Of a DNA stretch of 64,000 nt, positions 34,940 through 52,729 are shown one piece after another. A program made the translations under genes and the position numbers. Each line of letters starts with the position of its first letter. Within the stretch, counting starts at the first letter, position 1. This DNA is from an uncultured Alphaproteobacteria bacterium. GTDB taxonomy: Bacteria; Pseudomonadota; Alphaproteobacteria; MPNO01; DASWLB01. The stretch covers positions 1,375,655 to 1,439,654 of the forward strand of contig CAWGHZ010000007.1 in NCBI GenBank assembly GCA_963822575.1, written 5' to 3'. Under the pieces are notes generated by a model. That model was not told the DNA's origin and searched no databases. It worked only from the letters and a program-made list of their open reading frames with translations.

Positions 34940-36601
34940 ATGACCGCGGCCGCCCGGGGCTACGCCGACCTGCACGACCATATCGAGGCCCTGGAGAAGG
35001 CGGGGCTGCTCACCACCATCGACGCGCCGGTGAACAAGGACACCGAGCTGCACCCGCTGGTGCGCTGGCAGTTCCTCGGCGGCATCGCAGAGCCCGAGCG
35101 CAAGGCGTTCCTGTTCAAGAACGTCGTCGATGGGCACGGCCGCAAGTACGACATGCCCGTCGTGGTCGGCGCGCTCGCCGCCAACGCCGCCGTCTACGCC
35201 ACCGGCATGGGCGTGAAGGTCGCCGAAATCCAGGCGAAGTGGGACCACGCGATGGACCATCCCGTCGCGCCGCGCCTGGTGAACGAGGCGCCGTGCCACG
35301 AAGTGGTGGTCGAGGGGGCCGACCTGATGGGCCCCGGCAAGGGGCTCGACGCGCTGCCCATCCCCGTTTCGACGCCGGGCTTCGATTCCGCCCCGACGCT
35401 CACCGCCACCAACGTCATCACTAAGGACCCGGAAACCGGCGTGCAGAACATGGGCACGTACCGTGCCGGGCTGAAGGCGTCGGACCGGCTGGTGGTGCGC
35501 ATGGCGACGCGCATCGGCGGTGCCGGCGGGTATCTCCACTGGCAGAAATACAAGAAGCGCGGCGAAAAGATGGAATGCGCCATCGTCGTCGGCTGCCCGC
35601 CCTACGTCGCCTATGTCGCGCCGCAGAAGCTGCCGCTCGACATGGACGAGATCGAGCTCGCGGGCGGGCTCGCCGGCGCGCCGATCAACGTCGTCCGCGC
35701 CCGCACGGTGGACCTGATGGTGCCGGCCGAGGCGGAGCTGGTGATCGAGGGCATCATCGACCCCGAGATGGTCGAGCCCGAAGGCCCGTTCGGCGAGTCG
35801 CACGGCCACGTCGCGCTCGAGGAGTTCAACATGCCGATGCGGGTGACGGCCATCACCCACCGGCGGAACGCCGTGATCCCGTCCTATATCAGCCAGGTCG
35901 CGCCGTCGGAATCCTCGGTCATCAAGCGCGTCGCCTACGAGCCGATCTTCCTCCATCATCTGCGCGACCAGCTCGGCATCCGCGGCGTCAGCCGCGTCTC
36001 CATGCACGAGAAACTGACCGGGCTTCTCCGCATCACCATCATCAGCTTCAAGCGTGCAACGCCGAAGACGGAGGTGTGGCGCGCGCTCTACGCCGCCGCG
36101 GCCTACCGCTCGGACTGGTCGAAGATCTGCATCGCCGTGTCGGAGGACATCGACCCCGACAACGCCGACGCGATCCTATGGGCCATGGCCTACCGCATCA
36201 ATCCGGTGGAGGACGTGAAGACGCTGGGCCACCGCGCCCAGGGGCACGGACCGAAACGCGAGCATCACGGCGAGGAGGACTCGACGCTGCTGATCGACGC
36301 CACGATGAAAAGCGACATGCCGCCCCTTGCCCTGCCCGCTCGCGAATACATGGAGGGCGCGAAGAAGCTGTGGGAGAAGATCGGCCTGCCCAAGCTCAAC
36401 CCGGAATCGCCTTGGCACGGCTACTCGCTCGGCGACTGGACCGAGCAGTGGGCCGACATGGCGAAGCGCGCCGCCGCGAGCGATTGGCTCGAGAATGGCA
36501 AGCGCACGCTGCAGCGCCAGCGCAAGAACATCGTGCCCGAGACCTCCGTCCGCGACGTGGAGGAGGGCTGGGACGGCAAGAATGGCGACGCCAAGAAATG
36601 A
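34940..36601 (+). CDS. UbiD-family (prFMN-dependent) decarboxylase, paralog 2, first gene of a 4-gene operon
   Basis: GGAGGACC RBS; UbiD-like with EGPFGESHGH motif; stop overlaps next start (ATGA). Confidence 0.8.
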   Translation: MTAAARGYADLHDHIEALEKAGLLTTIDAPVNKDTELHPLVRWQFLGGIAEPERKAFLFKNVVDGHGRKYDMPVVVGALAANAAVYATGMGVKVAEIQAKWDHAMDHPVAPRLVNEAPCHEVVVEGADLMGPGKGLDALPIPVSTPGFDSAPTLTATNVITKDPETGVQNMGTYRAGLKASDRLVVRMATRIGGAGGYLHWQKYKKRGEKMECAIVVGCPPYVAYVAPQKLPLDMDEIELAGGLAGAPINVVRARTVDLMVPAEAELVIEGIIDPEMVEPEGPFGESHGHVALEEFNMPMRVTAITHRRNAVIPSYISQVAPSESSVIKRVAYEPIFLHHLRDQLGIRGVSRVSMHEKLTGLLRITIISFKRATPKTEVWRALYAAAAYRSDWSKICIAVSEDIDPDNADAILWAMAYRINPVEDVKTLGHRAQGHGPKREHHGEEDSTLLIDATMKSDMPPLALPAREYMEGAKKLWEKIGLPKLNPESPWHGYSLGDWTEQWADMAKRAAASDWLENGKRTLQRQRKNIVPETSVRDVEEGWDGKNGDAKK

Positions 36602-37467
36602 AGGCCGCGCCGTTCGCCTATCGCCGCGCCGAAAGCATCGCCGACGCCTGCGCCGCGCTCGAATCCGACGACGCGATGATCATCGCGGGCGGCCAGACGC
36701 TCGTGCCGCTGATGGCGATGCGCTTCGCCCGGCCGGCGCTGCTGATCGACATCAACGACATCGCCGACCTCAAGGGCATCGAGGCCCGCCCCGACCGGCT
36801 GGTGATCAGGGCCGCCACGCGCCAGGCGGACGCGCTCGCTGCCACCGATGTGAAGCGCGCCGCACCGCTCCTCGCCAAGGCCCTGCCCTGGGTCGGCCAC
36901 GGCCAGACCCGGGCGCGCGGCACAATCGGGGGCTCCGTCGCGCTCGCGGATCCCTCCGCGGAAATCCCGCTGGTCGCGGTTGCCCTCGGCGCGGCGATCA
37001 CGCTGCACGCCACGCGCGACGACCGCGTCGTGCCGGCCGAGGGGTTCTTCCTCGGCGCGATGGAGACGGCCCGCCGGTCGCACGAATGCCTGACCGCGGT
37101 GGCCTTCCCGGTTTGGACCGAGGCCGGACGCATCGGCACGGGCTTCACCGAGATCGCCGAGCGCCACGGCGACTTCGCCATCGTCGCCGCGGCGGCGCAG
37201 CTTCTGGTGGACGCCGATGGCGTGTGCCGGCGCGCTTCGGTCGCGGTCGGCGGCGCCGCGCCCGCGCCCGTCCGCGCCAAGGCAGCGGAGGCGGCGCTGG
37301 TCGGGTCGAAGCTGGACGACGCCGCCATCAAGAAGGCTGCGGCAGAGGTCGCGTCGCTGCTCGACCCGCCCGAGGACGGCCACGCCAGCGCCGCGTACCG
37401 CCGCCGCGTCGCGCCCGAACTGGTGCGCCGCGCCATTTCAGAAGCCGCGCGGGAGGCGCGGGCATGA
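36598..37467 (+). CDS. Molybdenum hydroxylase FAD-binding medium subunit (CoxM/XdhB family)
   Basis: IIAGGQTLVPLM FAD-binding motif; CO-DH flavoprotein C-terminal domain. Confidence 0.85.
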   Translation: MKAAPFAYRRAESIADACAALESDDAMIIAGGQTLVPLMAMRFARPALLIDINDIADLKGIEARPDRLVIRAATRQADALAATDVKRAAPLLAKALPWVGHGQTRARGTIGGSVALADPSAEIPLVAVALGAAITLHATRDDRVVPAEGFFLGAMETARRSHECLTAVAFPVWTEAGRIGTGFTEIAERHGDFAIVAAAAQLLVDADGVCRRASVAVGGAAPAPVRAKAAEAALVGSKLDDAAIKKAAAEVASLLDPPEDGHASAAYRRRVAPELVRRAISEAAREARA

Positions 37468-37949
37468 CCGCGCCCGTTCCCGTCCGCCTCACTGTCAATG
37501 GCCGCGCGCGCGAGGCCGAGGCCGAGCCGCGCGTCACGCTGCTCGATTTCCTGCGCGACCATCTCGGCCTCACCGGCACGCACATGGGTTGCGAGCACGG
37601 CGTGTGCGGCGCCTGCTCGGTGCTGCTCGACGGCGTCGCCGTGCGCTCCTGCCTAATCTTCGCCGTCATGGCCGCGGGGCACGAGGTGACGACGGTCGAG
37701 GGGCTCTGCATGGAGGACGGCTCGCCCGGCGTGCTGCAGGAATGCTTCTGGGATGGCCACGCGCAGCAATGCGGCTATTGCACGCCCGGCATGCTGATCG
37801 CCGCCGAGGCGCTGCTCGCGCACAACCCGACGCCAACGCGCGACGAGATCGAGGAGGCGATCTCCGGCAATCTCTGCCGCTGCACAGGCTATGTGCAGAT
37901 CGTGGAATCGATCGCCCGCGCCGCCGAGCGCAGGAAGGCAGGCGAGTGA
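37464..37949 (+). CDS. Molybdenum hydroxylase 2Fe-2S small subunit (CoxS family)
   Basis: C-x4-C-x2-C (CEHGVCGACSV) and C-x2-C...C-x-C (QCGYCTPG...CRCTGY) clusters. Confidence 0.9.
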   Translation: MTAPVPVRLTVNGRAREAEAEPRVTLLDFLRDHLGLTGTHMGCEHGVCGACSVLLDGVAVRSCLIFAVMAAGHEVTTVEGLCMEDGSPGVLQECFWDGHAQQCGYCTPGMLIAAEALLAHNPTPTRDEIEEAISGNLCRCTGYVQIVESIARAAERRKAGE

Positions 37950-40342
37950 TGGACGACGCGCCGCACCTCAAGAACTACCGCTTCGTCGCCCGGCCGCGCC
38001 GCACCAAGGAGGCCGAGCGCTTCGTCACCGGCGCCGGCACCTACGTGCAGGACGTGAAGCTGCCGGGCACCAAGCATATTGCGCCGGTGGCGAGCCCCTA
38101 CCCGCGCGCGAAGATCCTCTCCATCGACGCGTCGGAGGCGCTGGCGATGGACGGCGTGCACGCCGTCGTCACCGGCGCTGAGCTCGCCCGCGACACCGAG
38201 CCGATGTTCCAGGGGCTCGATATCCCCAAGGTGCGCTGGTACCCGCTGGCGCACGAGATCACCCGCTATGCCGGGGAGTGGGTGGCGGCGGTCTGCGCCG
38301 ACAGCCGGGCGCTGGCCGAGGATGCCGCCGAGAAGGTGGTGGTCGAGTACGAGCCCTTAGAGCCCGTGATCGATCCCGAGGCGGCGCTCGCGCCCGACGC
38401 GCCGCTGGTCCATCCCGACCACGGCACGAACCTCCTCTATTCCGGACGGTTCGTGTGGGGTCCGGTCGACGACGATTTCGCCGCCGCCGAGCACCGGCTG
38501 AAATTCCGCGCGCGTTGGGGGCGCAGCGCGACCGTACCGATCGAGACGTTCGGCGCACTGGCGCAATGGAACCGCGGCACCAAGATCCTCGACGTCTGGG
38601 CCTCGATCCAGATGACCAATTACGCCGAGCAGCTCGCCCACGCGCTGCGCCTGCCGGTCAATTCCGTCGCCGTGCACCAGGAGGTCGACGTCGGCGGCAG
38701 CTACGGTACCAAGCGCGGCATGAAGCACACCATCCTGTGCGGCCATCTCGCGCGCAAGCTCGGGTTCCCCGTGCGCTTCATCGAGGACCGGATCGACAAT
38801 CTGGCCGCGGGCGATTCGCACGGCCCGGACCGCATCTTCGACATGGAGGTCGCGTTCGAGTCCGACGGGCGCATCCTCTCGCTGAAAATCTTCGCCATCG
38901 ACGACGCCGGCGCGTATCCGGGCCGCGCGCCATTCCAGCTCGCCAAGCCGATCACCGCCATCGTCGGGCCGTACCAGATCAATTCCGTCGAATACCGCCC
39001 GACCTCGGTCACCACCAATAAGTCGGGCGAGGTGGCGGTGCGCGGCTTCGGCCAGTCGCCGACCAACTGGGCGATCGAGACCGCGGTCGACAAGGTGGCG
39101 CGGCACTTGGGCATGGACCGGCTGGAGCTGCGCCGCAGGAACCTGATCCGCAAGGACCAGTTCCCCTACGAGATCCCGTCGGGCACCAAGTACGATTCCG
39201 GCGACTACCACACGGTGCTGGACAAGGCCCTGGCGCTTGCCGACTACGACGCGCTGGTGAAGCGGCGTGACGCGATCCGCGCCGCGGGGCGGCTCGCCGG
39301 AATCGGCATCGCCTGCTGCCTGGAGCCCTCTGGCGGCAACAACATCCACGAGAACCTGATCAACCCCAAGCTCGCCGTCACGACCTTCATGGAGGCGTGC
39401 CAGGTGCGCATCGACCTCAACGGCGTGGTCACCGCGATGATGGGCACGACGACCTCGGGCCAGGGGCACGAGACGCTGGTCGCCACCATCGTCGCCGAAG
39501 AGCTGGAGCGCGACCCCGACGCGATCCGCGTGGTACACGCGGACTCGCTTGTCGGCCTCGTCACGCGGAGCCCGGTGGCGAGCCGCATGGCGATCATGCT
39601 GGGCGGCGCGGCGGCGGGCGCGGCGCAGAAGCTCAAGCGGAAGCTCCTCACGATCGCCGCCCATAATCTCGGCGTGCCGGCGGAGGCGCTGGAGTACGAA
39701 AGCGGCGATATCGTCGTTGCGTCCGACCGGTCGAAGAAGCTCACCTGGGCGGAGCTCTGCCGCATCGCTCATCAGCGGCTCGACCTGATGCCGGAGGGGA
39801 TGGAGCCCGCGCTGAACGAACTCCACGTCATGTCGGTGCCGCTCGGCGGGAAGCTTCCCGACGAGAACAAGCGGGTGCAGATCTACCCCTGCTTCGCCTT
39901 CCAGGCGCACGTGCCGTTCGTCGAGATCGACCCGGTGACCGGCAAGGTGACGATCTTGGACTACGTGATCGCGCACGATTGCGGCACGGTGATCAACCCC
40001 GGCATCGTGCGCGGCATGATCATAGGTGGCATCGCCCATGGGATCGGCGCGGCGCTCTACGAGAAGTTCGCCTACGGCCCGGACGGGCAGTTCTTCGCCG
40101 CGTCGTTCATGGACTATCTGCTGCCATCGGTGCACGAGATACCGCGCGTGCGCGATGTCGAGCACTGCACCCCCTCGCCGCTGACCTCGCACGGCCAGAA
40201 GGGCTCGGGCGAAGGCGGCTATCTCGGCGCGCCCGCCGCCATCGCCAGCGCCGTGAACGACGCGTTGGCGCCCCTGGGCCTGTCGCTCGACGAGACGCCG
40301 ATGCGCCCCGCGCTGGTCGAGGCGCTGCTCAACGCCGGATAG
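37949..40342 (+). CDS. Molybdenum hydroxylase large molybdopterin-binding subunit (CoxL/XdhA family; lacks the form I CODH AYRCSFR motif)
   Basis: 797 aa aldehyde oxidase/xanthine dehydrogenase a/b-hammerhead plus MoCo-binding domains; start overlaps coxS stop (TGATG). Confidence 0.85.
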
Positions 40343-40399: not shown

Positions 40400-42518
40400 T
40401 CAGTGCGGCAGCAGCCCGGCGAGGATGGCGAGCAGCAGCAGCGCCACGATGTTGATGATCTTGATCATCGGGTTGACCGCCGGTCCCGCCGTGTCCTTGT
40501 ACGGGTCGCCGACCGTGTCGCCGGTCACCGCCGCCTTGTGCGCGTCGGAGCCCTTGCCGCCGTAATGGTCGTCCTCGATATACTTCTTGGCGTTGTCCCA
40601 GGCGCCGCCGCCCGAGGTCATCGAGATCGCGACGAACAGGCCGGTGACAATGGTGCCGAGCAGCAGTGCGCCGAGGGTGGTGAACGCCGCCACCTCGCCG
40701 GCGATCCACCAGATCACCAGCCAGACGACGATCGGCGCCAGCACCGGTAGCAGCGACGGCAGGATCATCTCGCGGATCGCCGCCCTGGTCAGCAGATCGA
40801 CGGCGCGGCCGTACTCGGGCTTGGCCGTGCCCGCCATGATGCCGGGGATCTCCTTGAACTGGCGGCGCACCTCGACGACCACGCTGCCCGCCGCGCGGCC
40901 GACCGCCTGCATGCCGAGCGAGCCGAACAGATAGGGCAGCAGACCGCCGAGCAGCAGACCGACGACGACGTAGGGGTCCTGCAGGCGGAACTCGATCTGG
41001 CCGGCGAGGTTCGGGAAGTAGTGCTTGAGGTCCTGGGTGTAGGCGGCGAACAGCACCAGCGCGGCGAGGCCCGCCGAGCCGATGGCATAACCCTTGGTCA
41101 CCGCCTTGGTGGTGTTGCCTACGGCGTCGAGCGCGTCGGTCGAGGTGCGCACTTCGGCCGGCAGGTCGGCCATCTCGGCGATGCCGCCCGCGTTGTCCGT
41201 GACCGGCCCGTAGGCGTCGAGCGCGATCACCACCCCGGCGAGCGCCAGCATGGTGGTCGCGGCGAGCGCGATGCCGAACAGCCCGGCCGCGTAATAGGCG
41301 AGCAGGATGCCGGCGCAGATCACAACCACCGGCAGGGCCGTCGCTTCCATCGACACGGCGAGCCCCTGGATCACGTTCGTGCCGTGGCCGGTCTGCGAGG
41401 CGCGGGCGACCGACAGCACCGGCTTGTGGTCGGTGCCCGTGTAGTACTCTGTAATCCACACCAGGAGGCCGGTGACGCCCAACCCGACCAGGACGCATTC
41501 CATCAGGGAGAAGCCGGTGAGCTGGACGGCGCCCATCGCGATCGGCGCCGAAAAGCCCCCGAACAGGACCCAGGTGGCGATACCGACCAGCACGAACGAG
41601 ATCGCCGCCGAGGCGATGAAGCCCTTGTAGAGCGCGCCCATGATGTTGTTGGACGGGCCCAGCCGGACGAAGAACACGCCGATCACCGAGGCGATGATGC
41701 ACACCCCGCCGATCACCAGCGGGTAGACCATCATCGTCTCCAGCGGCGCACCGGTGAAGAAGATGCCGGCGAGCAGCATGGTCGCCACCATGGTGACCGC
41801 ATAGGTCTCGAACAGGTCGGCCGCCATGCCGGCGCAGTCGCCCACGTTGTCGCCCACGTTGTCGGCGATCACGGCGGCGTTGCGGGGGTCGTCCTCGGGG
41901 ATACCCGCCTCGATCTTGCCGACCAGGTCGGCGCCGACGTCGGCGCCCTTGGTGAAGATGCCGCCGCCGAGCCGCGCGAAGATCGAGATCAGCGAGCCGC
42001 CGAACCCGAGCGCGACCAGCGCCTCGAGGATGTGGCGGAGCCCCGCGGGGTCGGCCGCGTTGAAGATGCCGCGCAGCACGAAATAATAGCCGGCGACACC
42101 CAACAGCCCGAGCCCGACCACCAGCATGCCGGTGATCGCACCCGACTTGAAGGCAATGTCGAGCGCCGGGCGAAGCCCGCCGGAGCGTGCCGCCTCGGCC
42201 GTCCGCACATTGGCCCGGACCGAGACGTTCATGCCGAGATAGCCCGCCGCGCCCGACAGGATGGCGCCGATGGCGAACCCGATCGCGCTGTAGACGCTCA
42301 GCAGGAATCCGAAGAATCAGGCAAACCACGATGCCGACGATGCCGATGGTGGTGTATTGCCGGTTGAGGTAGGCCTTCGCGCCCTCCTGGACCGCGGCCG
42401 CGATCTCCTGCATGCGCGCGGTGCCGGCGCTGGCGGCGAGGATCGCGCGGGACGCCCAGGCGCCGTAGCCGAGCGCCACGATCCCGCACGCGATCACAAA
42501 CCAGTAAGTCGATGTCAT
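40400..42518 (-). pseudogene. hppA: K+/H+-translocating membrane pyrophosphatase (HppA), frameshifted near 42311-42322
   Basis: N-terminal 70 aa ([21 protein letters not shown]...) in one frame, the remaining 610 aa (..[24 protein letters not shown]..) in the +1 frame. Confidence 0.8.
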
Positions 42519-42677
42519 CGGTTTTTCCTTGTGATTGGCTTGCCGGAGCGCGGCGTCCCTGATCCACGCCGCGCGCCGGGGAACGTCGAGCCCCTCGGAC
42601 GAAAAATCGCGCGGAACATGCCAGATAAGGCCTGGCAAGGCAAACGGATGGTAGGGGGCGGAGGACGGCCGTCTTGC

Positions 42678-43881
42678 CTATTTCAAGGCCAACTCCCGCC
42701 GAAACGAATCGATGGCGAACTTCGCTGCCCAGTTCAGGTACTGGAACCGCCCGTACCAGCCGGAAATGGGGAACGAGCCGCGTACGCCGCCAATGCGGTC
42801 GGGATGCTCCGACGTCGCGATGGTCCGCCGGACGAAGGCGTTGGCGCGCAGGGCGGCGTCGCGGTATCGCGGTTCGCCCGTCCAGTCGAAAAGCTGCAGC
42901 CAGCACCAAGCAATCTGCACCGAACCGGTCAAGCAGGCCCACGGTGCCGCAGGCCGCCAGTCGGCATAGAAGCGGCCGGCAAGGTAGCCGTCGTGCCGGA
43001 CGCGAGGGACCAAGGCGTCGGCCGTCTTCCGCGCCGCCCCCAGCAGCGCGTCGTCGGGCCGCAATCGGTATGCCTCGATCAATCCGCGCAGCACGTACCC
43101 GATCGTGTGCGTGAGTGGGCGCGACGAAGTCGAGAAGGCAGCAGTCCGCGAACCAGCCGTTGGGGCGCTGCTTCGTCAGGGCCCAGCGCACTTGCTTGAG
43201 GCCGGCCTCACCATAGCCGCGCCCCGGCGCGACCCGGTCCGCCTCGAACAGCCCCCAGGCGACATGCGTTTCGTAGGCCTTTTCGCTCGCCAACGCGAAG
43301 GGTGTCGGGAAGCGGCGCCAGCAGCCGTCGTCGTCCTGCGTGGCGACCAGCCACGCCGCCGCCCGGTTCATGGCGTCGTGGTAGGCCTGCTTTCCCAGCG
43401 TCGCGGCGCCGGCGGCGAGGCCGAGCAGTATCTGGCCCGTATTGAAGGTCACGGGCTGCACGGGGCGCTGGACCATCGTGCCCCCCTGAAAGCCGCCTTC
43501 CGGGAACTGGATCGACACCAGCCAGTCGAGCATGCGCTCGGCGCGCTGCCGCAGCGAGGCATCGCTGCAAATGTCGGCCTCGCTCAGCAATGTCGGGACG
43601 ATGTATCCGGTCGTCTCCGGATAGGACGCGGCCCAGCCGTCGATCAGGCTGAAATGGCGTGCGACCCCGCCATCCCCCGTCGCCGACCGGTCCTGCGCCC
43701 GGCCGAGCCATGCCAGGCAGGCCGCGATCGCCGCCTCGCAGCCTGGATCGGACGAGGGCGGGCCGCGACGGTCCGCGCGGTCTTGCGCCCGCGCCGCGTC
43801 CGTTACGTCGTTGAGCTGCAGGTAGTAGCGTTCGGCGAGCGTCTCGGGCAGGAGGCGCTTGATGCCCGCTCTAATGTCCAC
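42678..43881 (-). pseudogene. Prenyltransferase / terpene-cyclase-like alpha-alpha toroid protein with QW (QxxDGxW) repeats, frameshifted near 43095-43115
   Basis: QW motifs TQDDDGCW, SIQFPEGGF, KQRPNGWF; two frames join at ..CCLLDFV / PLTHTIGYVLRGL.. Confidence 0.6.
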
Positions 43882-45072
43882 GTCTCCTCGCCCCGGAAAG
43901 AGCGCCCGCGCGGGACCTATAGGGCCGCGCAAACAATTTCGACAGCCTCGATCCGAGACGGTCCAAAGCCGTGTAGCACCAGGGCATGGGATCGTCCAGC
44001 CGCCACACGGCGTCCCGCGGCCGCACGCCGTCCGGGAAACCGCGTTGCGTCCCGGGCTGCATCTCGGCCGACCACCGGTCGATCGGCGAAACGGTCCAGC
44101 CCACCGGCCGGGCCGGGGGGCATGGCGGCGGAACCGGCTGGCCCACGGCGCTGCAATAGGCGGCATTCGGAATGTTCACGCCGTTCAGCGTGGCCACCTC
44201 CTCCTGGAAATCGGACCGCCCCACGGTGGGCTCGATCATGACGAACCGGCCCGTACGGGCGTCACGCTTGTATTCCATGCTTCCCATCCCGACGAATCCG
44301 ACCGCGGTGAAAAACGCGTCGGTCAGGCGCTCGAGCTCGGCCGCATGCTCCGGGGCCGGCATGCAGCTCGCCGTGCCGCCGGTCTGGGGCGGCCAGGAGC
44401 GCAACTTGCGACCAGTGAATCGCGCCACAGCGCGGTCGGGCGCATCGCGGTACTGCAGGCAGAAAAAGATCGCATCGTCACCGCCTTCGATCCATTCCTG
44501 GACGATCAGTTCGGCGGCCCCATCGATCTCGGTGACCAATTCGCGCAGCCGGACGAGGCTCTCGATCTTGTAAGCCTTCTTGAACAGCCTCTGATAGCGC
44601 TCTGTCTTCACAACAGGTTTGAGCACGCAGGGAAAGGCGAGCCCCTCGGACGCGGCAAGATCGGCCGGTCCGACGATGTGCACGGCCCGCGGCACGGGAA
44701 AGCCGAGCCGCTCGGCCGCGTCCTGGAACCGTGCCTTGTCCATCAGGACGCGCATGATCGCGTCGTCCGACATGGCGATGCGATAGTGCGCGGCGACGCG
44801 CGCGTAGTCGGATGACACCGTCTCGACGCTCGCTTCCTGGGTCAAGATCAGGACCGGGTCGGCTTCGAAGCGTGCGCGCAGCGCGATCAGCGCATCGACG
44901 AAGCCTGGCCCGGAAAGCAACGGGATTTCGAGGTAGCGCGCATGCCGGCTGCGCAGCGCGATATCGGCCGGGTTGCGTTCGGCCAGCCAGACCGGTATCC
45001 TTGCCTTGCCAGGCTGCGGACGATACCCAGCCCGTTGATGTCGCCGCCTATGATGAGCGCAAGAGCATCCAT
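43871..45072 (-). pseudogene. ATP-grasp domain carboxylate-amine ligase, frameshifted near 44995-45005
   Basis: N-terminal MDALALIIGGDINGLGIVRSLARQG continues in the other frame as IPVWLAERNP...; ATP-grasp core downstream. Confidence 0.7.
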
Positions 45073-45207
45073 CGAGAATCCGCGCCCGCAGCTACCCGGA
45101 CGCGCTGCCGGAGGTTGCCTGTCGGGCACCTCCCGACCCGGCGATTACCGTCGCCGACGCCAGCGCGCGGCCGAGTGCCGCACAGATATCGGCGACCTCT
45201 TCTTCCG

Positions 45208-46332
45208 TCATCCGTGAATGGCTCGGAAGTTCGAGAGACGTGGCGCAACGGCGGTCGCAAAGGGAAAGGTTCCGCCGTGGCTGAAGTCCAGTGCATAGCC
45301 CCGGCGCGTCGCGACCCCCAACCGTAGTAGCGCCGCCCGTAAATCCTCGCGATCCGTACCGTCCGGCAGCACCACCATGATGCGGGTCAAGTACCGCCCG
45401 GGCTTAAATTGTGGGAAGCGCACGCCCGGTATTCCGGCAAGATGGCGATGAAACAGGCCACCGACGCGAACACGCCCTTCGATCCGCGCGGTACAAGTCT
45501 CGAGCTGGGTCAACGCGATCGCCGCGCTGATATTGGGCATGCGCGTCGGAGGAAAGTAAGGGGGCGCCCATTTCTTGCCGAAGGCACGCTGCAATATTTC
45601 CCGCCAGTAATAAGTCGCCAAAGAAAAAATGGACTCGAATTGATAGTCCTTGAGATATGCCAACAAGTTGTTCAGTTTGTAGCTTGGGTCAGGGAGTTCC
45701 TCCCATTGCACTTGTGCCGCGCCCGCAAGGTCGGGGTTATTCCAAACCACGAGACCACCGGCCTCATAGCAACCTGTCACGAGAGTCTTAGACGTCGCGA
45801 AGCTGATGATCCCTGCGTCCCCGAAACCCCCGAAAGCTCTTCGGCGACTCGCGCGCACCCCGATCAAATTGGCCGCATCGTCGATGAGGAAGATGCCCTT
45901 ATTGCGACACAGGGCTTCGATCTTTTCGATTTCGCAAGGACATCCATATGCGTGAACCGCTATGACGGCGTGCGTTCGTTCCGAGATTGCCCGCTCCAGA
46001 CAGTCCACCGAGACGTTAAGGTCAGGTTCGATATCGACCGGTACCGGCGAAAGTCCCGCCTTCACTATGGCCTCGATCACGCTATCGCAAATGTATGCCG
46101 GATAAATGACCTCGCTTTTCCCGGGACGGTTTTGGGAAGACGCCTTCAACGCAAACCAGATGGCGGATCGCGCCCGATTGACCGGAAATATCGTTGCGTT
46201 TGGATAGCTGTCGCGAAAATGCGCGACGATTGAATCCACTGACCGGCCGACATTCGCGCGACCCAGAACGACGGCCCCTAAAGCGGCCACATAGTCCCGC
46301 CGCCCCCATTCTCCATAAATCATCGGGTGCAT
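45208..46332 (-). CDS. DegT/DnrJ/EryC1/StrS family PLP-dependent sugar aminotransferase
   Basis: 374 aa; SFATSKTL lysine motif; lower-GC region. Confidence 0.8.
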   Translation of the reverse strand: MHPMIYGEWGRRDYVAALGAVVLGRANVGRSVDSIVAHFRDSYPNATIFPVNRARSAIWFALKASSQNRPGKSEVIYPAYICDSVIEAIVKAGLSPVPVDIEPDLNVSVDCLERAISERTHAVIAVHAYGCPCEIEKIEALCRNKGIFLIDDAANLIGVRASRRRAFGGFGDAGIISFATSKTLVTGCYEAGGLVVWNNPDLAGAAQVQWEELPDPSYKLNNLLAYLKDYQFESIFSLATYYWREILQRAFGKKWAPPYFPPTRMPNISAAIALTQLETCTARIEGRVRVGGLFHRHLAGIPGVRFPQFKPGRYLTRIMVVLPDGTDREDLRAALLRLGVATRRGYALDFSHGGTFPFATAVAPRLSNFRAIHG

Positions 46333-46362
46333 AAGGGACCTTCTCGAAGACCTAGCTTTTAT

Positions 46363-47036
46363 CTAGGCGAACGCCGGAAAATACGAACCACCCGGCATTC
46401 CACTCGAACTTGTTGATCCCCAGCTTGCCCAAGAACCTCTTGGGATCGTCCGAGCCCACCGCAGATCTCGGAAATATTCGCGGAACGTCATTCCGCGGAA
46501 CAGAGGCTTTGCGGTCCGCACGATCAAATCGATTGCGATAAGACCACCGTACCTTTCGCGCACTTCTTTCTCGTTCTGAAAAAATCGCACATGCGTGGAA
46601 TAATCGAAATTCGGCACGGTGCAGATACAGAACGTTCCCGGCTTCCATAGCTTGACCGCAGAAATGTCCTGTTCGATATGTTCAAGAACCTCCGTGCAGA
46701 CGATACAGTCATAATCATACGAGCTGTAAGCTTCCGGCTCTAGAGCGTTTCCGACAAACACGACGCCGCTCTTGCCAAGACGCTGCGCCGCATTTTTTAC
46801 CGCAATCTGGCTAAAATCGAACCCACGATACTCGATGGCACATTTTTGGACGATCATCTCCGCGAGTCGGCCGCTTCCGCATCCGACTTCGAGGACGTGC
46901 CACGTTGCGCGCGTTGCACCTTATCCACAATATCGCAATACATAGGATAGTATTCTGATTTCGTGACCGGAAGGTCCGGGCGTCCCCATTCGGCATGAAG
47001 TTCATCGTAGACAGTAAGATCCGCTTCTTTTCCCAT
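46363..47036 (-). pseudogene. Class I SAM-dependent methyltransferase, frameshifted near 46895-46905 (CGCGCG run)
   Basis: N-terminal 45 aa in one frame up to ..VDKVQRA; motif I LEVGCGSGRLAEMIVQK continues in the other frame. Confidence 0.65.
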
Positions 47037-47047
47037 GTCACATGGTC

Positions 47048-48525
47048 CTATAGGTATTGCGGCTGGCGCTGAATCAATCTTCGAAGCCCGATCAGCAACG
47101 TGCGCTCTGCCCCACCCGGTCGTCCGGACATTAGCCACATAGTCAACGTCACCGCCGAAAACACGACCACACCAGAGACTACCGAAGCTCCAAGGACCAT
47201 GCCCCATCCAAGAGCATCATGCGAATGGGGTAGCTGCGCTTGGCACTCGAGAACGACGACGACCATCACGAGAGATCCTATCAATGGCCGATATAGGACC
47301 CCAAGAAGCCTTCCTGGAGCGAGGTTAAGAATTCGGCAAACAAGTAGAAAGTCAATGAATGACGAAACCGCTGCACCGCCGGTAACCGCCCATGCCGCTC
47401 CAACAACTCCAAGGTGGCTCACACCTATAACAAGCAATGGCAACATCACGATGGCGCCACCACCAAAAACCCATGCGGGATATTGCGGCCGCGAACATGC
47501 CATGAACAAGGGATGACTGCACGAGGTTAAGCAGGCAAGCAGCGCATAAACGGAAAGGACATGCATGATAGGTATCGCGGCGACCCATTTTTCGCCAAGC
47601 GCCAAGTGAACCACGGAACTGGCAACAAGGCCCAAGCCGACGGCAACGGGCACGGCAAAAAGGCTCGCGAGGCCGAATACTCCGAGGAAAGCCTGACGTA
47701 GCTCCGGCAGGTCTCCAGAAATCTTCGCGAAAGCAGGATAGATGCCACGCCTCATGGGCGCCAAGAGAAGACCGGTCACCATATCCATGATTTCAAGTGC
47801 AATCGTGTATACACCGACCGACTGGGCTCCCGCGAGCCGGCCCAGCACGAAGACATCGCTCTTTCTATATAAAAAGACACCAGAATTGACTAGGATCAGC
47901 CATTTCGAAAAATGCATGATCTCGCGCCAATGCTGGAACTCAGCCGCGGGCGCATGGGCTGCATCGTGTAGCTGAGGACAAGCGCACCACGGAGAGGCCG
48001 CGATTCCGGCCACCAATGCCCAATAGCTCGCGAAATGATGGCCAGCGGGATGATCACGACGAAACCGCCCAGCTTCGTAACCACCATGTAAATGAAGTCG
48101 CGGCGGAAATTGAGCTGCTTGCGGAAATCTACGAGGCCGATGTTCTGGAACCCATCGATCAATGTCGTGCCCGCCAGGCAATACACGATCGCCTCGAGCC
48201 GCGCGTCGCCGAACAACTCGGCGAAACGAACGGCGCGGCGGGAAGGAGCGCCAGCGCCAGGACCGCGTTGCGGCAGATGGCGAGCGTCCACGCCGTATCG
48301 TAATGCTGGCGTGTCGCCTTCTGGTTCTGGATCAGGACCGTGTCGAGGCTGAACTCGGTCACCGCCTGAAGGGCCCCGGAAAAGGTAGTGGCGAGCGCGA
48401 CGAGGCCGAAATCGGCCGGGACGAGCAGTCGCGCCAGAATGATCGTGCTGAGCATCCCGATCCCCTGCGACGGCGAGCCGCGCGCCGACAGTCCAGGCGG
48501 TGCCCTTGGCCATCTCGCGGCCCAT
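47048..48525 (-). pseudogene. wzx: Wzx-like polysaccharide flippase (polysaccharide biosynthesis protein family), at least three frameshifts
   Basis: Flippase N-terminus ..AWTVGARLAVAG / GIGMLSTIILARLLVPADFGLVALA split at a GGGG run (48462); further shifts near 48240 and 48000; C-terminal 370 aa intact. Confidence 0.65.
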
Positions 48526-49954
48526 GCCCTGGGTCGCCGCGCGGCACTCGGCTCGGACGACGGTGCCGTCGGGTCGCGACGGGCGTGCGGACGACGTCAT
48601 ATCTATGCGCGCCGGCATAGCGCCTTCCCCGATAAGGCCGTTCGAGAAACGCCTCCGCACGGGCGAACTGCAAGTCGCGGGCCAACCCCTCGCGCGCGGC
48701 GACCGGAAGGCGTGGGATGACCCCCTGCGCCGCTTTCTCGCGCGCCCAATCCCGCAAGTGTCCGGCGATGACGTCGGGATCCGTCGACACGGCCCCGGCC
48801 CGGCGGGCGCGCACGAAGTCCGCAGGCACCCCCTTGTCATATCCCATCACCAGGATCGGTCGCAGGCTCGCCAGATATTCGAACAGCTTGCCGGGGCAGT
48901 TGCCGGTCTCCATCGGGTTGTCCCACTGCATGAGAAGCAGGACGTCGGCATCCCATTGGAGCTGCAGCGATTTGTCGTACGGCACCGCCGGGTGTACCTC
49001 CACCAGGTGCCGTACGCCCGCCCTTTCGGCAAGCGGCCAGACCGCTTCGGGAGCGGTCCCATAAAATTCGAGAACGAAACGTTCGCCCTCGGGATCGATC
49101 TGCCGCAACGCCTGGAACAAGGGCGTCGGGTCGCGGCGCCCGACATAGATCGCCCCGGTGTAGACGATCCGCACCTTCGCCGAGACGGATTTCGGCGGCG
49201 CGCTCGGGTCGAACGAAAAATCCTTGGGATCGTAGCCGTTATAGACCGTCGCGACAGGCTTGCCGTATTTGGCACGATAGAACTCGCACCACGGCTCGGT
49301 GACGGTAACGATGCCCGTGGCGTTACGCAGCGTGCGCCGCTCCACCCACTGTTCCAGCCTGTGGCGCCAGCGCGGCCAATCCAGGAAGCGGTAGGGATCG
49401 TCCGCCCAACGATCGCGGAGCTCCGCGAGCCATGGCACGCCGAGCCGGGCACTCGCGCGGTGCGCGACGAGGAAGGCGGTGAAGGACGGGCCGCTGGCAT
49501 AGATCGCATCCGGCCGCCATGCCCGCCCCAGGCGCAGCACGTCGCGCAACGCGTACGGGTACCACCCGACCCGTTGGTCCGGGATGTTCAGCAGATTCGT
49601 GTAGCAGTCGGACAGACGCCGCAGCAACGCCGGGCGCGACGTGCCGTTATCCGCTGCGCCCGTCTCGGCTTGGGGCGCGGCGGTTTCGGCGAGGGAGGCC
49701 GGCGGCTGCCCGGTCATCCGGGTCCACAGCCCGCTGCCCAGCCGGACGGGCGCGTTGACGTCGAACCAGTTGGAATACGAAAGCCGCTTCAGCTCGATTC
49801 CCAGCGGCATGGTCTCGGGCATGCCCCAGTCGCGGCCCGCCACAACGCCGACTTCGTGCCCCCGCTCGACCAGGTAACGGGTGAACTTGCCGACACGCAC
49901 TGCGCCGATCGCATTGACCGGAGGAAAGTACCACGAAACGATCAGAATTCGCAT
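48359..49954 (-). CDS. Glycosyltransferase family 4 (C-terminal boundary uncertain; the ORF runs on into wzx N-terminal region in another frame)
   Basis: Start MRILIVSWYFPP; GT4 N-terminal and C-terminal sugar-binding domains; true stop probably near 48550-48700. Confidence 0.7.
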   Translation of the reverse strand: MRILIVSWYFPPVNAIGAVRVGKFTRYLVERGHEVGVVAGRDWGMPETMPLGIELKRLSYSNWFDVNAPVRLGSGLWTRMTGQPPASLAETAAPQAETGAADNGTSRPALLRRLSDCYTNLLNIPDQRVGWYPYALRDVLRLGRAWRPDAIYASGPSFTAFLVAHRASARLGVPWLAELRDRWADDPYRFLDWPRWRHRLEQWVERRTLRNATGIVTVTEPWCEFYRAKYGKPVATVYNGYDPKDFSFDPSAPPKSVSAKVRIVYTGAIYVGRRDPTPLFQALRQIDPEGERFVLEFYGTAPEAVWPLAERAGVRHLVEVHPAVPYDKSLQLQWDADVLLLMQWDNPMETGNCPGKLFEYLASLRPILVMGYDKGVPADFVRARRAGAVSTDPDVIAGHLRDWAREKAAQGVIPRLPVAAREGLARDLQFARAEAFLERPYRGRRYAGAHRYDVVRTPVATRRHRRPSRVPRGDPGHGPRDGQGHRLDCRRAARRRRGSGCSARSFWRDCSSRPISASSRSPLPFPGPFRR

Positions 49955-50145
49955 GCCCGGGCCGTCGCGGTGGGCCGCCGAATGAACTGCCACGTCGGCG
50001 GTCACGTTGGGTCCCGACTTCGTCGGTTCTTGCCAAGCGATGAACGTCCCCCGCGACGGGGCCTCCGGCGGTGCCGCCCTTATAGCGGCGCCCCATCATC
50101 CCGTCAAAGCGCCACGAAATCGTTACCGGACGGAGGGTAAGGCCG

Positions 50146-51255
50146 TCAGCCTGCGAAATCTGCCAGGCGCACCGGCTGGCGGCGCGGGCCCCAGTCGCCG
50201 GGGCGCGGCTCGAACACGCCGGGAAGCCTGGCGCCGCAGCCGGTGCAGCATCCCTCCGCGTCCAGGTTCCACGCCCCCAGCGCGTACCAGTCGCGTTCGA
50301 TCAGGAGCGTGCCGCAGGCGGGGCACCACGTGCTGCCGCCGGCGGCGTCGTGCACGTTGCCGGTATAGACAAAGCGGAGCCCACGGGCCCGGGCGATCTC
50401 GCGCGCGCGGCCAAGGGTCGCAGCCGGGGTGGCATGCTTGCCGGTCATCTTCCAATCGGGATGGAAGGCGGTGAAGTGCACCGGCACGTCCGGGCCCAAA
50501 TGATCGCCAATCCACGCACATTCGGCGTCGATCTCGCCCGGCGAGTCGTTCTCGCCGGGGATCAGGAGCGTGGTGATCTCGAACCAGACCTTTGATTCGG
50601 CAAGATATTCTAGCGTCTCCAGAACTGGCGTCAGCGATCCGCCGCAGATCTTCCGGTAGAAATCGTCGGTGAACGCCTTCAGGTCCACGTTCGCCGCGTC
50701 CATGTGGGCGTAGAACTCGGCCCGCGCGGCGGGAAGCTGGTAGCCGGCCGTCACCGCGACGGTCTTGATCCCCCGCGCGCGGCACGCCTCGGCCACGTCG
50801 ATCGCGTATTCATGGAAGATGACGGGATCGTTGTAGGTGAAGGCGACCGACCGGCAGCCGAGCGCCTGGGCGGCGCGGGCGATGGTGTCGGGCGCGGCCT
50901 CGTCGGCCAGCGTATCCATCTCGCGCGATTTCGAGATGTCCCAGTTCTGGCAGAACTTGCAGGCGAGGTTGCAGCCCGCCGTGCCGAACGACAGGACCGG
51001 CGTTCCCGGCAGGAAATGGTTGAGCGGCTTCTTCTCGATCGGGTCGACGCAAAAGCCCGACGAGCGGCCGTAGGTGTCGAGCACGATGGAATCGCCCGCG
51101 CGCGACCGCACGAAACAGAGCCCGCGCTGGCCGTCGGCCAGCCGGCAGCGGCGCGGGCAGATCTCACACTCGATCCGCTGGTCGGCGAGCTTGCGGAAAT
51201 GGCGGCCCGGCGCGGGCGCCGGCCGGGCCGTCGGTCGACTCAGTATGCGTGCCAT
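50146..51255 (-). CDS. AmmeMemoRadiSam system radical SAM enzyme
   Basis: CNLACKFC (CxxxCxxC) radical SAM motif plus N-terminal Cys cluster ECEICPRRC; divergent from the Memo/AMMECR1 pair. Confidence 0.8.
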   Translation of the reverse strand: MARILSRPTARPAPAPGRHFRKLADQRIECEICPRRCRLADGQRGLCFVRSRAGDSIVLDTYGRSSGFCVDPIEKKPLNHFLPGTPVLSFGTAGCNLACKFCQNWDISKSREMDTLADEAAPDTIARAAQALGCRSVAFTYNDPVIFHEYAIDVAEACRARGIKTVAVTAGYQLPAARAEFYAHMDAANVDLKAFTDDFYRKICGGSLTPVLETLEYLAESKVWFEITTLLIPGENDSPGEIDAECAWIGDHLGPDVPVHFTAFHPDWKMTGKHATPAATLGRAREIARARGLRFVYTGNVHDAAGGSTWCPACGTLLIERDWYALGAWNLDAEGCCTGCGARLPGVFEPRPGDWGPRRQPVRLADFAG

Positions 51256-51338
51256 GGAGCGATTCCTCGCCTTGCAGATAGGCGGGCGAGACCACAGATT
51301 CAACAACATCTAGGCCACTCTTGCGAGGGGACATCAAT

Positions 51339-52130
51339 ATGCCGGTCGTCCAGCGCGCTGCCGTCGCCGGCACGTTCTATCCGGGCGAGCCGGACGTTCT
51401 CGCCCGCACGTTGGCGACGCTCCTCGCCACGGCCGAGCCCGAGACCGAGGGGCCGGTGCCCGCGGCGATCGTCGCGCCGCACGCGGGCTACGTCTATTCC
51501 GGCCCGATCGCGGCCAGCGCCTATGCCCGTCTCGCGCCCCTCAAGGGCACGGTGCGGCGTGTCGTTCTGATCGGGCCCGCGCACCAGCTCTATTTCCACG
51601 GCATCGCCGCGCCCACCGCGGACCAGTTCGAGACGCCGCTCGGCGCGATCCCGGTCGACCGCGCGGCGGTCGCGCGCCTCCTCGCGCTGCCGCACGTCGC
51701 CGAGAACGACGCCGCCTTTGCGGGCGAGCACTGCCTGGAAGTGCATCTTCCCTTCCTCCAGACCGTGCTGGGCGATTTCACGCTGGTGCCGCTGATCGCG
51801 GGCCATGCCGGCGGGCGCGACGTGGCCGAGGTGCTGGAGCTGTTGTGGGCCGGTCCCGACACGCTGCCGGTGATCTCGTCCGACCTCAGCCACTACCACG
51901 ATTACGAGACGGCCCGCCGGCGCGACGCCGAGACCGCTCGCGCCATCGAGGCGTTGGCCGGCGAACGGCTCGACTACGACGATGCCTGCGGCCGCACCCC
52001 GATTGCCGGGCTTCTGCAGGTCGCGCGGGCGCGCGGCCTTGCCGCCCGCACCGTCGACCTCCGCAACTCGGGCGACACGGCCGGCCCGCGCGGCGAGGTG
52101 GTGGGCTACGGCGCCTGGGTCGTGGAATGA
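51339..52130 (+). CDS. AmmeMemoRadiSam system protein B (MEMO1 family)
   Basis: MEMO-like sequence (IVAPHAGYVYSG, HCLEVHLPFLQ, SSDLSHY); GAGGGGACA RBS. Confidence 0.8.
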   Translation: MPVVQRAAVAGTFYPGEPDVLARTLATLLATAEPETEGPVPAAIVAPHAGYVYSGPIAASAYARLAPLKGTVRRVVLIGPAHQLYFHGIAAPTADQFETPLGAIPVDRAAVARLLALPHVAENDAAFAGEHCLEVHLPFLQTVLGDFTLVPLIAGHAGGRDVAEVLELLWAGPDTLPVISSDLSHYHDYETARRRDAETARAIEALAGERLDYDDACGRTPIAGLLQVARARGLAARTVDLRNSGDTAGPRGEVVGYGAWVVE

Positions 52131-52729
52131 CGGCGACCGCCCTCGCCGCGCCGCTCGATGCGCTGATCGAGGCATACGGCGCGGCGCTTCTCGACCTCGC
52201 CGTCGCCTCGGTGCGGCACGGGCTGGAACGCGGCTGCCCGCTCGCGGTCGACGCCGTGCCGGCGGCCCTCGGCGAGGCTGGGGCGTCCTTCGTAACGCTG
52301 CACCGGCTGGGCGAGCTGCGCGGCTGCATCGGCAGCGCGCGGGCGTGGCGTGCGCTCGCCGCCGACGTCGCGGACAACGCCTTCGGTTCGGCATTCCACG
52401 ATCCCCGCTTCGCGCCGCTCACGGAAGACGAGCTCGAGGCGCTCGACCTCGACCTCTCGCTCCTTGGCGCGCCCGAGCCGTTCCCGGTCGACTCCGAGGC
52501 CGGGCTGATCGCGGCGCTGACGCCCGGCCGCGACGGGCTGATCCTCTCCGAGGGCGGGCGACGCGGGCTGTTCCTGCCGGCGGTGTGGGAGCAGGTCGAC
52601 GACCCGGGCGAATTCGTTCGTCACCTGAAATACAAGGCGGGGCTTCCCGCCGACCATTGGTCGGACCGCATTGTCGTCGAGCGGTTCGAGACCCGCTCGA
52701 TCGCGCGCGAGCGCGCCTGGGCGGCGTGA
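52127..52729 (+). CDS. AmmeMemoRadiSam system protein A (AMMECR1 domain)
   Basis: AMMECR1 hallmark ..GELRGCIGS..; start overlaps the Memo stop (ATGA). Confidence 0.8.
   Translation: MTATALAAPLDALIEAYGAALLDLAVASVRHGLERGCPLAVDAVPAALGEAGASFVTLHRLGELRGCIGSARAWRALAADVADNAFGSAFHDPRFAPLTEDELEALDLDLSLLGAPEPFPVDSEAGLIAALTPGRDGLILSEGGRRGLFLPAVWEQVDDPGEFVRHLKYKAGLPADHWSDRIVVERFETRSIARERAWAA

Follow-up and report, generated by a model that had tools for sequence, protein, structure and literature searches.

The locus described here raises the question of whether a bacterial surface-glycan cluster whose genes are broken out of frame one after the other is decaying in the organism or has been misread in its assembly. 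We analysed a window of 64,000 nucleotides (nt) from contig CAWGHZ010000007.1 of an uncultured Alphaproteobacteria bacterium (assembly GCA_963822575.1, positions 1,375,655 to 1,439,654), which has a guanine plus cytosine (GC) content of ca. 69% and is alphaproteobacterial in character (Rhodospirillales-like). All positions given below are those of the window unless a relative is named. Read along the minus strand from 50 kb to 40.4 kb and identified via Pfam matches and homologues, the locus encodes a glycosyltransferase of family 4 (GT4), a Wzx/PST flippase (wzx), an S-adenosylmethionine (SAM)-dependent methyltransferase, a DegT protein, an ATP-grasp protein, a QW-like protein and the pyrophosphatase HppA. 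Six or seven of these consecutive genes are frame-broken. The initial annotation had offered two explanations, namely decay of a horizontally acquired glycan island together with hppA, or assembly errors in the form of homopolymer indels. We conclude, with a probability of roughly 0.78, that the frame breaks are indels wrongly called in the local consensus of a strain-variable island, in an assembly built from long reads and probably of metagenomic origin.

Frame changes were located with a purpose-written frameshift-aware protein-to-DNA aligner using full-length homologues as references. Switches of the coding frame inside open reading frames (ORFs) were also tracked by third-position GC content and a codon-usage score, both of which show frame switching within ORFs. 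Between 42311 and about 48630, 11 firm frame-break events were found, or 12-13 on the fullest count. They comprise one each in hppA and the QW-like, ATP-grasp and DegT genes, two in the methyltransferase gene and five or six in wzx, with probably one more in the tail of the GT4 gene. All of these events are indels of 1-2 nt, overall about 3 insertions and 9-10 deletions, and no in-frame stop, large deletion or insertion sequence (IS) element was found alongside them. The initial annotation had counted seven frameshifts in five genes. That consecutive minus-strand genes are split at 42.3-48.6 kb was borne out, while the number of broken genes rises to six, the DegT gene having been omitted, and the tally of seven proved too low, with the DegT event and the second methyltransferase event among those missed.

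The events are not spread evenly over the window. Outside the region, the codon-score map flagged only yicC (ca. 19030, plus strand) and fliM (ca. 60745, minus strand). The N-terminal LNQDEI motif and the SLLGL motif flank the single fliM break, which the initial annotation had already listed. In case of yicC, two events had been listed; the two pieces match adjoining stretches of the Pfam profile YicC-like_N (3-69 and 72-155), so a single frameshift suffices and the second was discarded. Together, yicC and fliM give a background of about 1 event per 29 kb. Event density is ca. 2 per kb in the 6.3 kb region compared with ca. 0.035 per kb across the remaining 58 kb, a pile-up of ca. 55-fold. 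The probability of at least 11 of 13 events landing in 6.33 of 64 kb by chance is P = 6e-10, which upholds the earlier impression of a density far above that of the rest of the window.

Two relatives could be compared at the locus, L081 (ENA ERZ25039483, contig_2321, 1.84 Mb) and L087 (ERZ25039495, contig_27693), both of them Mb-scale metagenome contigs with Flye-style names. Relative to the L081 orthologues, at 76-95% identity, no frameshifts were found in the genes encoding UbiD, FAD_binding_5, Fer2 and MoCoBD proteins (35501-40331) on one side of the region, nor in the GT4 body and the radical SAM, Memo and AMMECR1 genes (48640-52721) on the other. The clustering is genuine and has sharp bounds.

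All genes and breaks described in the following lie on the minus strand. The hppA gene, encoding a membrane H+/Na+ pyrophosphatase (40400-42518), reads as a 610-residue ORF plus an N-terminal piece, which match positions 84-645 and 1-58 of the Pfam H_PPase profile in separate frames. Its single break is one additional base at 42310-42314 (ca. 42311), located by alignment to the hppA of L001 and by DNA alignments with L081 and L087. The junction sequence is GATTC[T]TCGG in the window, GATTC-TCGG in L087 and TGTGC-TGGG in L081. This extra T is the sole indel of the window in the 2.1-kb hppA coding sequence relative to L081.

The QW/alpha-toroid-like protein is encoded at 42678-43886, with an approximate start codon and a weak match to SQHop_cyclase_C, and is the orthologue of a 409-residue gene directly following the ATP-grasp gene in L083. 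Alignment to this orthologue and a three-frame view place a net +1 frameshift at 43110-43140, with the frame change itself at 43134 by alignment; the frame switches between ...FADCCL and RPLTHTIGYVLRG. For the neighbouring ATP-grasp carboxylate-amine ligase (43871-45072, 120 homologues, termed 'D-aspartate ligase-like' in the sources), frameshift-aware alignment located a 1-nt deletion at 44988-44996 (ca. 44991), where CAAGGATACCGG would read QG|IPVW were it GGAATACC. An additional frameshift at the junction between the end of the ATP-grasp gene and the start of the QW-like gene was considered and dropped, as the homologue tails do not require one.

The DegT/DnrJ/EryC1 gene, encoding a pyridoxal phosphate-dependent sugar aminotransferase (45092-46332, 413 residues when restored), ends early as read, at 45208. 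Its last ca. 50 residues (LELPSHSRMTEEEVADICAALGRAL...) sit in another frame, and a 1-nt deletion in CGTCTCTCGAAC at 45232-45245 (ca. 45240) accounts for the switch. Repair extends the Pfam match from 23-307 to 23-359 of 360 profile positions and raises its score from 141 to 157.2 bits, and the PDB chain 7b0d_A aligns through the junction APRL|LELPSH. The class I SAM-dependent methyltransferase (46352-47036, ca. 227 residues when restored) is spread over three frames. Its first frameshift, a net -1 or +2 change at 46893-46937 (ca. 46900) called with six of six references, falls a short distance upstream of SAM motif I (VLEVGCGSG). This junction was placed by protein alignment, and its placement uncertainty takes in the CAACGCGCGCAACG run (CGCGCG). 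Repair moves the start of the Methyltransf_12 match from profile position 20 to position 1. The second frameshift, a 1-nt deletion at 46443-46455 (ca. 46450), is likewise needed by all six references, five of which place it in this interval and one at 46401, and leaves the C-terminus DPKRFLGKLGINKFEWNAGWFVFSGVR in another frame. The L082 methyltransferase was too distant to serve as an alignment reference (score 49) and was replaced by matches from species representatives. The events in the ATP-grasp and DegT genes and the second one in the methyltransferase gene were called 1-nt deletions from the reading frames alone.

The most heavily affected gene is wzx (47048-48600), which yields a stop-free Wzx/PST-family flippase of 517 residues after six small edits. 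At the protein level, the aligner reported five frame changes (48468, 48224, 48036/48027, ca. 47986 and ca. 47940) with seven of eight references. DNA alignment to L081 resolves a 1-nt insertion at 48469, the C in GCCGT[C]GCAGGGG, and three 1-nt deletions within 47939-47997 (47997/47996, 47984/47983 and 47940/47939), which register as only two frame changes at the protein level. Both aligner and DNA alignment further support a net +2 or -1 change at 48216-48226 (ca. 48220), between PAAPFV and AELFGD, and a 1-nt deletion at 48027-48036 (ca. 48029), where the window has GCG-AGC and L081 has GCGCAGC. Upstream of wzx, the body of the GT4 gene (48604-49954) is free of frameshifts, and its ORF lacks a stop at the end of its orthologue and runs on for 93 codons, reaching ca. 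240 nt into wzx, to 48359. The gene arrangement makes a frame change near 48610-48640 probable; such a change would end the gene at the TAG at 48606-48604. This stop lies 3 nt before the wzx ATG and would match the arrangement in L081.

Repair of these breaks gives conserved full-length ORFs under selection. With one base removed, hppA encodes 705 residues that are 94.8% identical to the likewise repaired HppA of L081, with a synonymous divergence (dS) of 0.32 and a ratio of nonsynonymous to synonymous divergence (dN/dS) of 0.10. Repaired wzx aligns to homologues of 533 and 524 residues over 99% of the query and retains 110 of the 115 columns with at least 90% conservation in a set of 80 homologues. 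The homologues themselves retain a median of 96.6%, and 22 of the 80 fall below wzx. Within residues 27-236, the 210-codon segment that contains five or six of the breaks, wzx is 80% identical to L081 with a dN/dS of 0.17. The ATP-grasp protein retains 105 of 110 conserved columns. No internal stops occur in the restored frames of hppA, wzx, DegT and the methyltransferase, and no trace of relaxed selection was found in the repaired genes in the form of raised dN/dS, lost conserved residues, nonsense codons or larger lesions. Five or six indels within 530 bp that are not accompanied by a matching number of substitutions are a poor fit to long drift. Judged on sequence conservation, the organism itself most likely has intact, working copies of the six or seven genes.

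The sequence context of the junctions was then compared with background. Within 10 nt on either side of the junctions, the longest homopolymer is 2-4 nt, equal to that at random positions, and the longest dinucleotide repeat of 6 nt equals background as well. None of the 23 runs of at least 5 nt in the region carries an indel. Homopolymer or dinucleotide slippage was rejected as a cause because the junction contexts are no richer in runs than background. The initial annotation had placed one junction at the GGGG run near 48462; this run is identical in L081, and it is the C in GT[C]GCAGGGG that is extra, so the attribution of the indel to the run was wrong. The suggestion of homopolymer errors in the assembly is retained only in its second half, with assembly error being the reading we favour and homopolymers playing no visible part. 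An error trigger at CcrM sites (GANTC) was also discarded: by eye, two junctions (hppA and wzx 47996) lie within ca. 5 nt of GANTC, which is near chance. Base composition was likewise rejected as a cause, since breaks occur both in genes of 67-70% GC (hppA, QW-like, ATP-grasp and the 5' part of wzx) and in genes of 52-60% GC. At the region boundaries, a search for repeats, IS ends and tRNAs returned only short chance repeats and no tRNA, and neither contig-end signatures nor runs of N were present.

Comparison with the relatives shows what kind of locus is affected. L081 is syntenic, with AMMECR1, Memo, radical SAM, GT4 and wzx genes followed by a different cassette, hppA and MoCoBD, and its hppA is 90% identical at the DNA level to that of the window. 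The cassettes beside hppA are unlike in all three genomes compared (window 42519-48000; L081 11592-13660; L087 1-9855). The window carries the methyltransferase, DegT, ATP-grasp and QW-like genes, L081 a 310-residue gene of unknown function and a GT2 gene, and L087 the dTDP-rhamnose set rmlBADC with GT2, GT4 and methyltransferase genes. In the window and in L081 the cassette is bracketed by the AmmeMemoRadiSam genes, GT4 and the 5' part of wzx on one side and by hppA on the other, whereas only the hppA side is visible in L087. GC content falls to 0.54-0.60 across 45-48 kb, compared with 0.65-0.75 elsewhere in the window. The wzx gene itself has a mosaic structure. GC content in its 5' third is native, and the DNA there is 72-89% identical to L081 from 48500 to 47900; in the 3' two-thirds, identity drops to 63% and then 46% at a GC content of 0.52-0.56. 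This change implies a putative recombination breakpoint near 47900 inside wzx. The 140 nt upstream of this position contain four of the indels, and on the opposite flank the hppA indel sits 207 nt in from the edge. The same arrangement is familiar from hypervariable O-antigen or exopolysaccharide loci between conserved genes, e.g. galF-gnd in Enterobacteriaceae. As in those loci, conserved flanks bracket a low-GC cassette that differs among the three genomes compared, with a breakpoint inside wzx; the likeness concerns the locus and not the frameshifts. The underlying biology is that of an ordinary hypervariable surface-glycan locus.

Orthologous loci had been named in the initial annotation as a check on the breaks, and the answer they give is mixed. 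In L087, hppA is intact (705 residues, 95% identical), while in L081 it is separately broken at another position, by an extra T in GAGA[T]CGATG after residue 259 (L081 14444). The FAD_binding_3 gene of L081 is split into two calls (L081 4190-5837), and its UbiD call has 366 residues (L081 19628-20728) compared with 553 in L087. Taken together with the hppA frameshift, these features indicate that the L081 assembly is also indel-prone. Separate hppA breaks in two contigs of this kind are the pattern that consensus noise predicts.

Searches for closer relatives and for the same sequence elsewhere were largely negative. In nucleotide identity, no relative found came closer than about 90%. Among the species representatives listed, the best matches to hppA are 76-79% identical and come from Rhodospirillaceae, Azospirillum and Stella; none of the best 80 species-representative loci matched by hppA, with the best match listed being 79% identical, contains the island genes. 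An exact-pattern scan of metagenome contigs over the hppA junction, with and without the extra base, gave 0 matches. A public protein collection contains fragments of the window exactly as read, all from one NCBI/ENA contig of 1,526,333 bp: P0121 (349 residues), P0242 (164 residues) and P0394 (610 residues), derived from the ATP-grasp, methyltransferase and hppA genes, respectively. In case of the ATP-grasp gene, the deposit calls only the 349-residue piece, to which P0121 is 100% identical. The deposited, unannotated assembly therefore already carries the indels. No window wzx fragment appeared in the wzx homologue search, though a 100% match would be expected.

In the explanation we favour, single-base and occasionally two-base consensus errors would have gathered in one poorly supported stretch, made up of the strain-variable glycan cassette and a few hundred bases of its conserved edges (the 5' end of hppA, and the 5' third of wzx with the GT4 tail). 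In a mixed population, the cassette would be carried by only part of the reads, which would reduce local depth. At the cassette edges, reads of strains with other cassettes would align partially, and polishing would leave indels uncorrected. Assembly errors, whose extent depends on platform and coverage, account for many of the pseudogenes in databases (Cooley & Wright 2024, PMC11017572), localised heterogeneity within a population can make long-read data 'unpolishable' (proovframe preprint, doi 10.1101/2021.08.23.457338), and large sets of Nanopore-only metagenome-assembled genomes have received one round of Medaka polishing (PMC12313526). The breaks resemble the spurious pseudogenes of long-read or low-coverage assemblies (PMC11017572; doi 10.1101/2021.08.23.457338) in that small indels split conserved genes, the deposit calls short fragments, guided repair yields full-length proteins and the error load tracks coverage and local heterogeneity. 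The errors at this locus differ in being extremely local (ca. 2 compared with ca. 0.035 per kb) and in lying off homopolymers.

Several points weigh against this explanation. Systematic errors of Nanopore, 454 and Ion Torrent sequencing usually fall at homopolymers. As the junctions here do not, they point instead to a random error mode arising from low depth or a mixed pile-up, which has to be assumed. Base calls were judged from the consensus alone. The sequencing platform is deduced only from contig size and the naming of the relatives, and we infer both the long-read technology and the low depth or strain mixture that would underlie the clustering. Because the other 58 kb hold just 2 events, the cause must be local, and the local cause proposed here is putative. 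Finally, O-antigen clusters with several real inactivating frameshifts are on record, Yersinia pestis being an example (Skurnik 2000, cited in PMC4319491).

If the breaks were genuine pseudogenes instead, the lineage would recently have inactivated a strain-specific glycan cassette plus hppA via small indels. We consider this unlikely. Five or six indels crowd into 530 bp of wzx, yet this segment has no nonsense codon, normal conserved residues and a dN/dS of 0.17, whereas after a first killing frameshift later ones are neutral and would be expected together with many substitutions. In the conserved, housekeeping-type hppA there is just a single indel, at a distance of 207 nt from the edge of the cassette, and dN/dS is 0.10. 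Natural 1-nt indels concentrate in homopolymer runs, unlike those observed here (0 of 23 runs of at least 5 nt affected), and hppA is independently broken in L081, whose contig resembles that of the window in style. These observations have to be set against the fact that the sequence as given does hold disabling changes in several genes of one cluster, six or seven of them consecutive, that part of the cassette is low in GC and likely acquired and that the deposited assembly holds identical breaks. The earlier proposal of an acquired, decaying island can accordingly be divided: acquisition is reasonable for 45-47.9 kb in view of the GC content of 0.52-0.60 and the differing cassette, while decay is disfavoured by dN/dS values of 0.10-0.17. 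Frameshift density in the Y. pestis O-antigen cluster is reportedly roughly a tenth of the ca. 2 per kb seen here. The breaks at our locus are confined to one functional unit, the glycan cassette, and giving up surface polysaccharide is a recognised adaptive strategy, with Y. pestis as an example (Skurnik 2000, cited in PMC4319491). The Y. pestis cluster is alike in having several surface-polysaccharide genes frameshifted while the rest remains near that of intact relatives. It is unlike our locus in that breaks are far denser here, with up to six in one gene, that the non-glycan hppA is affected, that there is no relaxed selection and that the lesions are known from one assembly. A related possibility, which we regard as very unlikely, is that the indels are real and that a fresh glycan cassette and the adjoining ends of hppA and wzx were struck by a localised burst of indels outside homopolymers. 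Error-prone repair or a recombination tract at cassette integration could then have silenced six or seven genes before substitutions could accrue.

Two further explanations fare worse. An assembly chimera or patch, i.e. a gap-filled or unpolished segment or a consensus mixing two strain haplotypes between polished flanks, would be in agreement with the sharp boundaries and clean flanks, with the densest errors lying just upstream of the identity and GC change inside wzx (ca. 47.9 kb) and with the hypervariability of the locus among relatives. A raw single-read patch would hold hundreds of errors per 6 kb and not about a dozen, and no repeats, contig-end signatures or runs of N mark the boundaries. 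We therefore give this scenario, which is a variant of the artefact explanation and not a biological alternative, only a slim chance. Surface-glycan genes are also classic phase-variable loci, as in Neisseria, Haemophilus and Campylobacter, and frame changes in such genes could in principle reflect slipped-strand switches, ribosomal frameshifting or transcriptional slippage. This is extremely improbable here. The ca. 46900 junction lies near the CGCGCG run. The junctions lack the long homopolymer or repeat tracts of phase-variable genes (2-4 nt; dinucleotide repeats of 6 nt), many sites occur per gene, and the GGGG beside 48469 is invariant between the window and L081. Recoding would have to be efficient at each of at least 11 sites in six genes and in both +1 and -1 directions, and the relatives read through these positions fixed in frame.

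Two features of the locus are independent of the frame breaks. A complete AmmeMemoRadiSam trio (radical SAM, Memo and AMMECR1; 50146-52726) adjoins the glycan locus and is 76-86% identical to the trio of L081. Further, the ATP-grasp gene and the QW/SQHop_cyclase_C-like gene form a conserved pair (window 42678-45072; L083 8001-10378; L084 1612-3989). The genes of the pair share a 4-nt overlap in L083 and L084, where they adjoin an Acetyltransf_6 (FemAB-like) gene, and L083 additionally carries Wzy_C and methyltransferase genes nearby. Based on its gene context, the pair is possibly an uncharacterised glycan-modification module and a candidate for adding an amino acid to an amino sugar.

Our analysis indicates that errors in long-read assemblies may be uneven and may lie off homopolymers, piling up ca. 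55-fold in a strain-variable island and its edges, and that surveys of pangenomes or pseudogenes can mistake such a pile-up for a decaying island. Were the indels real, the locus would instead be the record of an unusual, localised indel burst tied to cassette exchange. Anyone trusting the deposit as it stands would count six or seven pseudogenes, hppA among them, and suspect a surface-glycan island in decay. As far as can be read from their sequences, these genes are almost certainly intact in the organism despite the deposited breaks.

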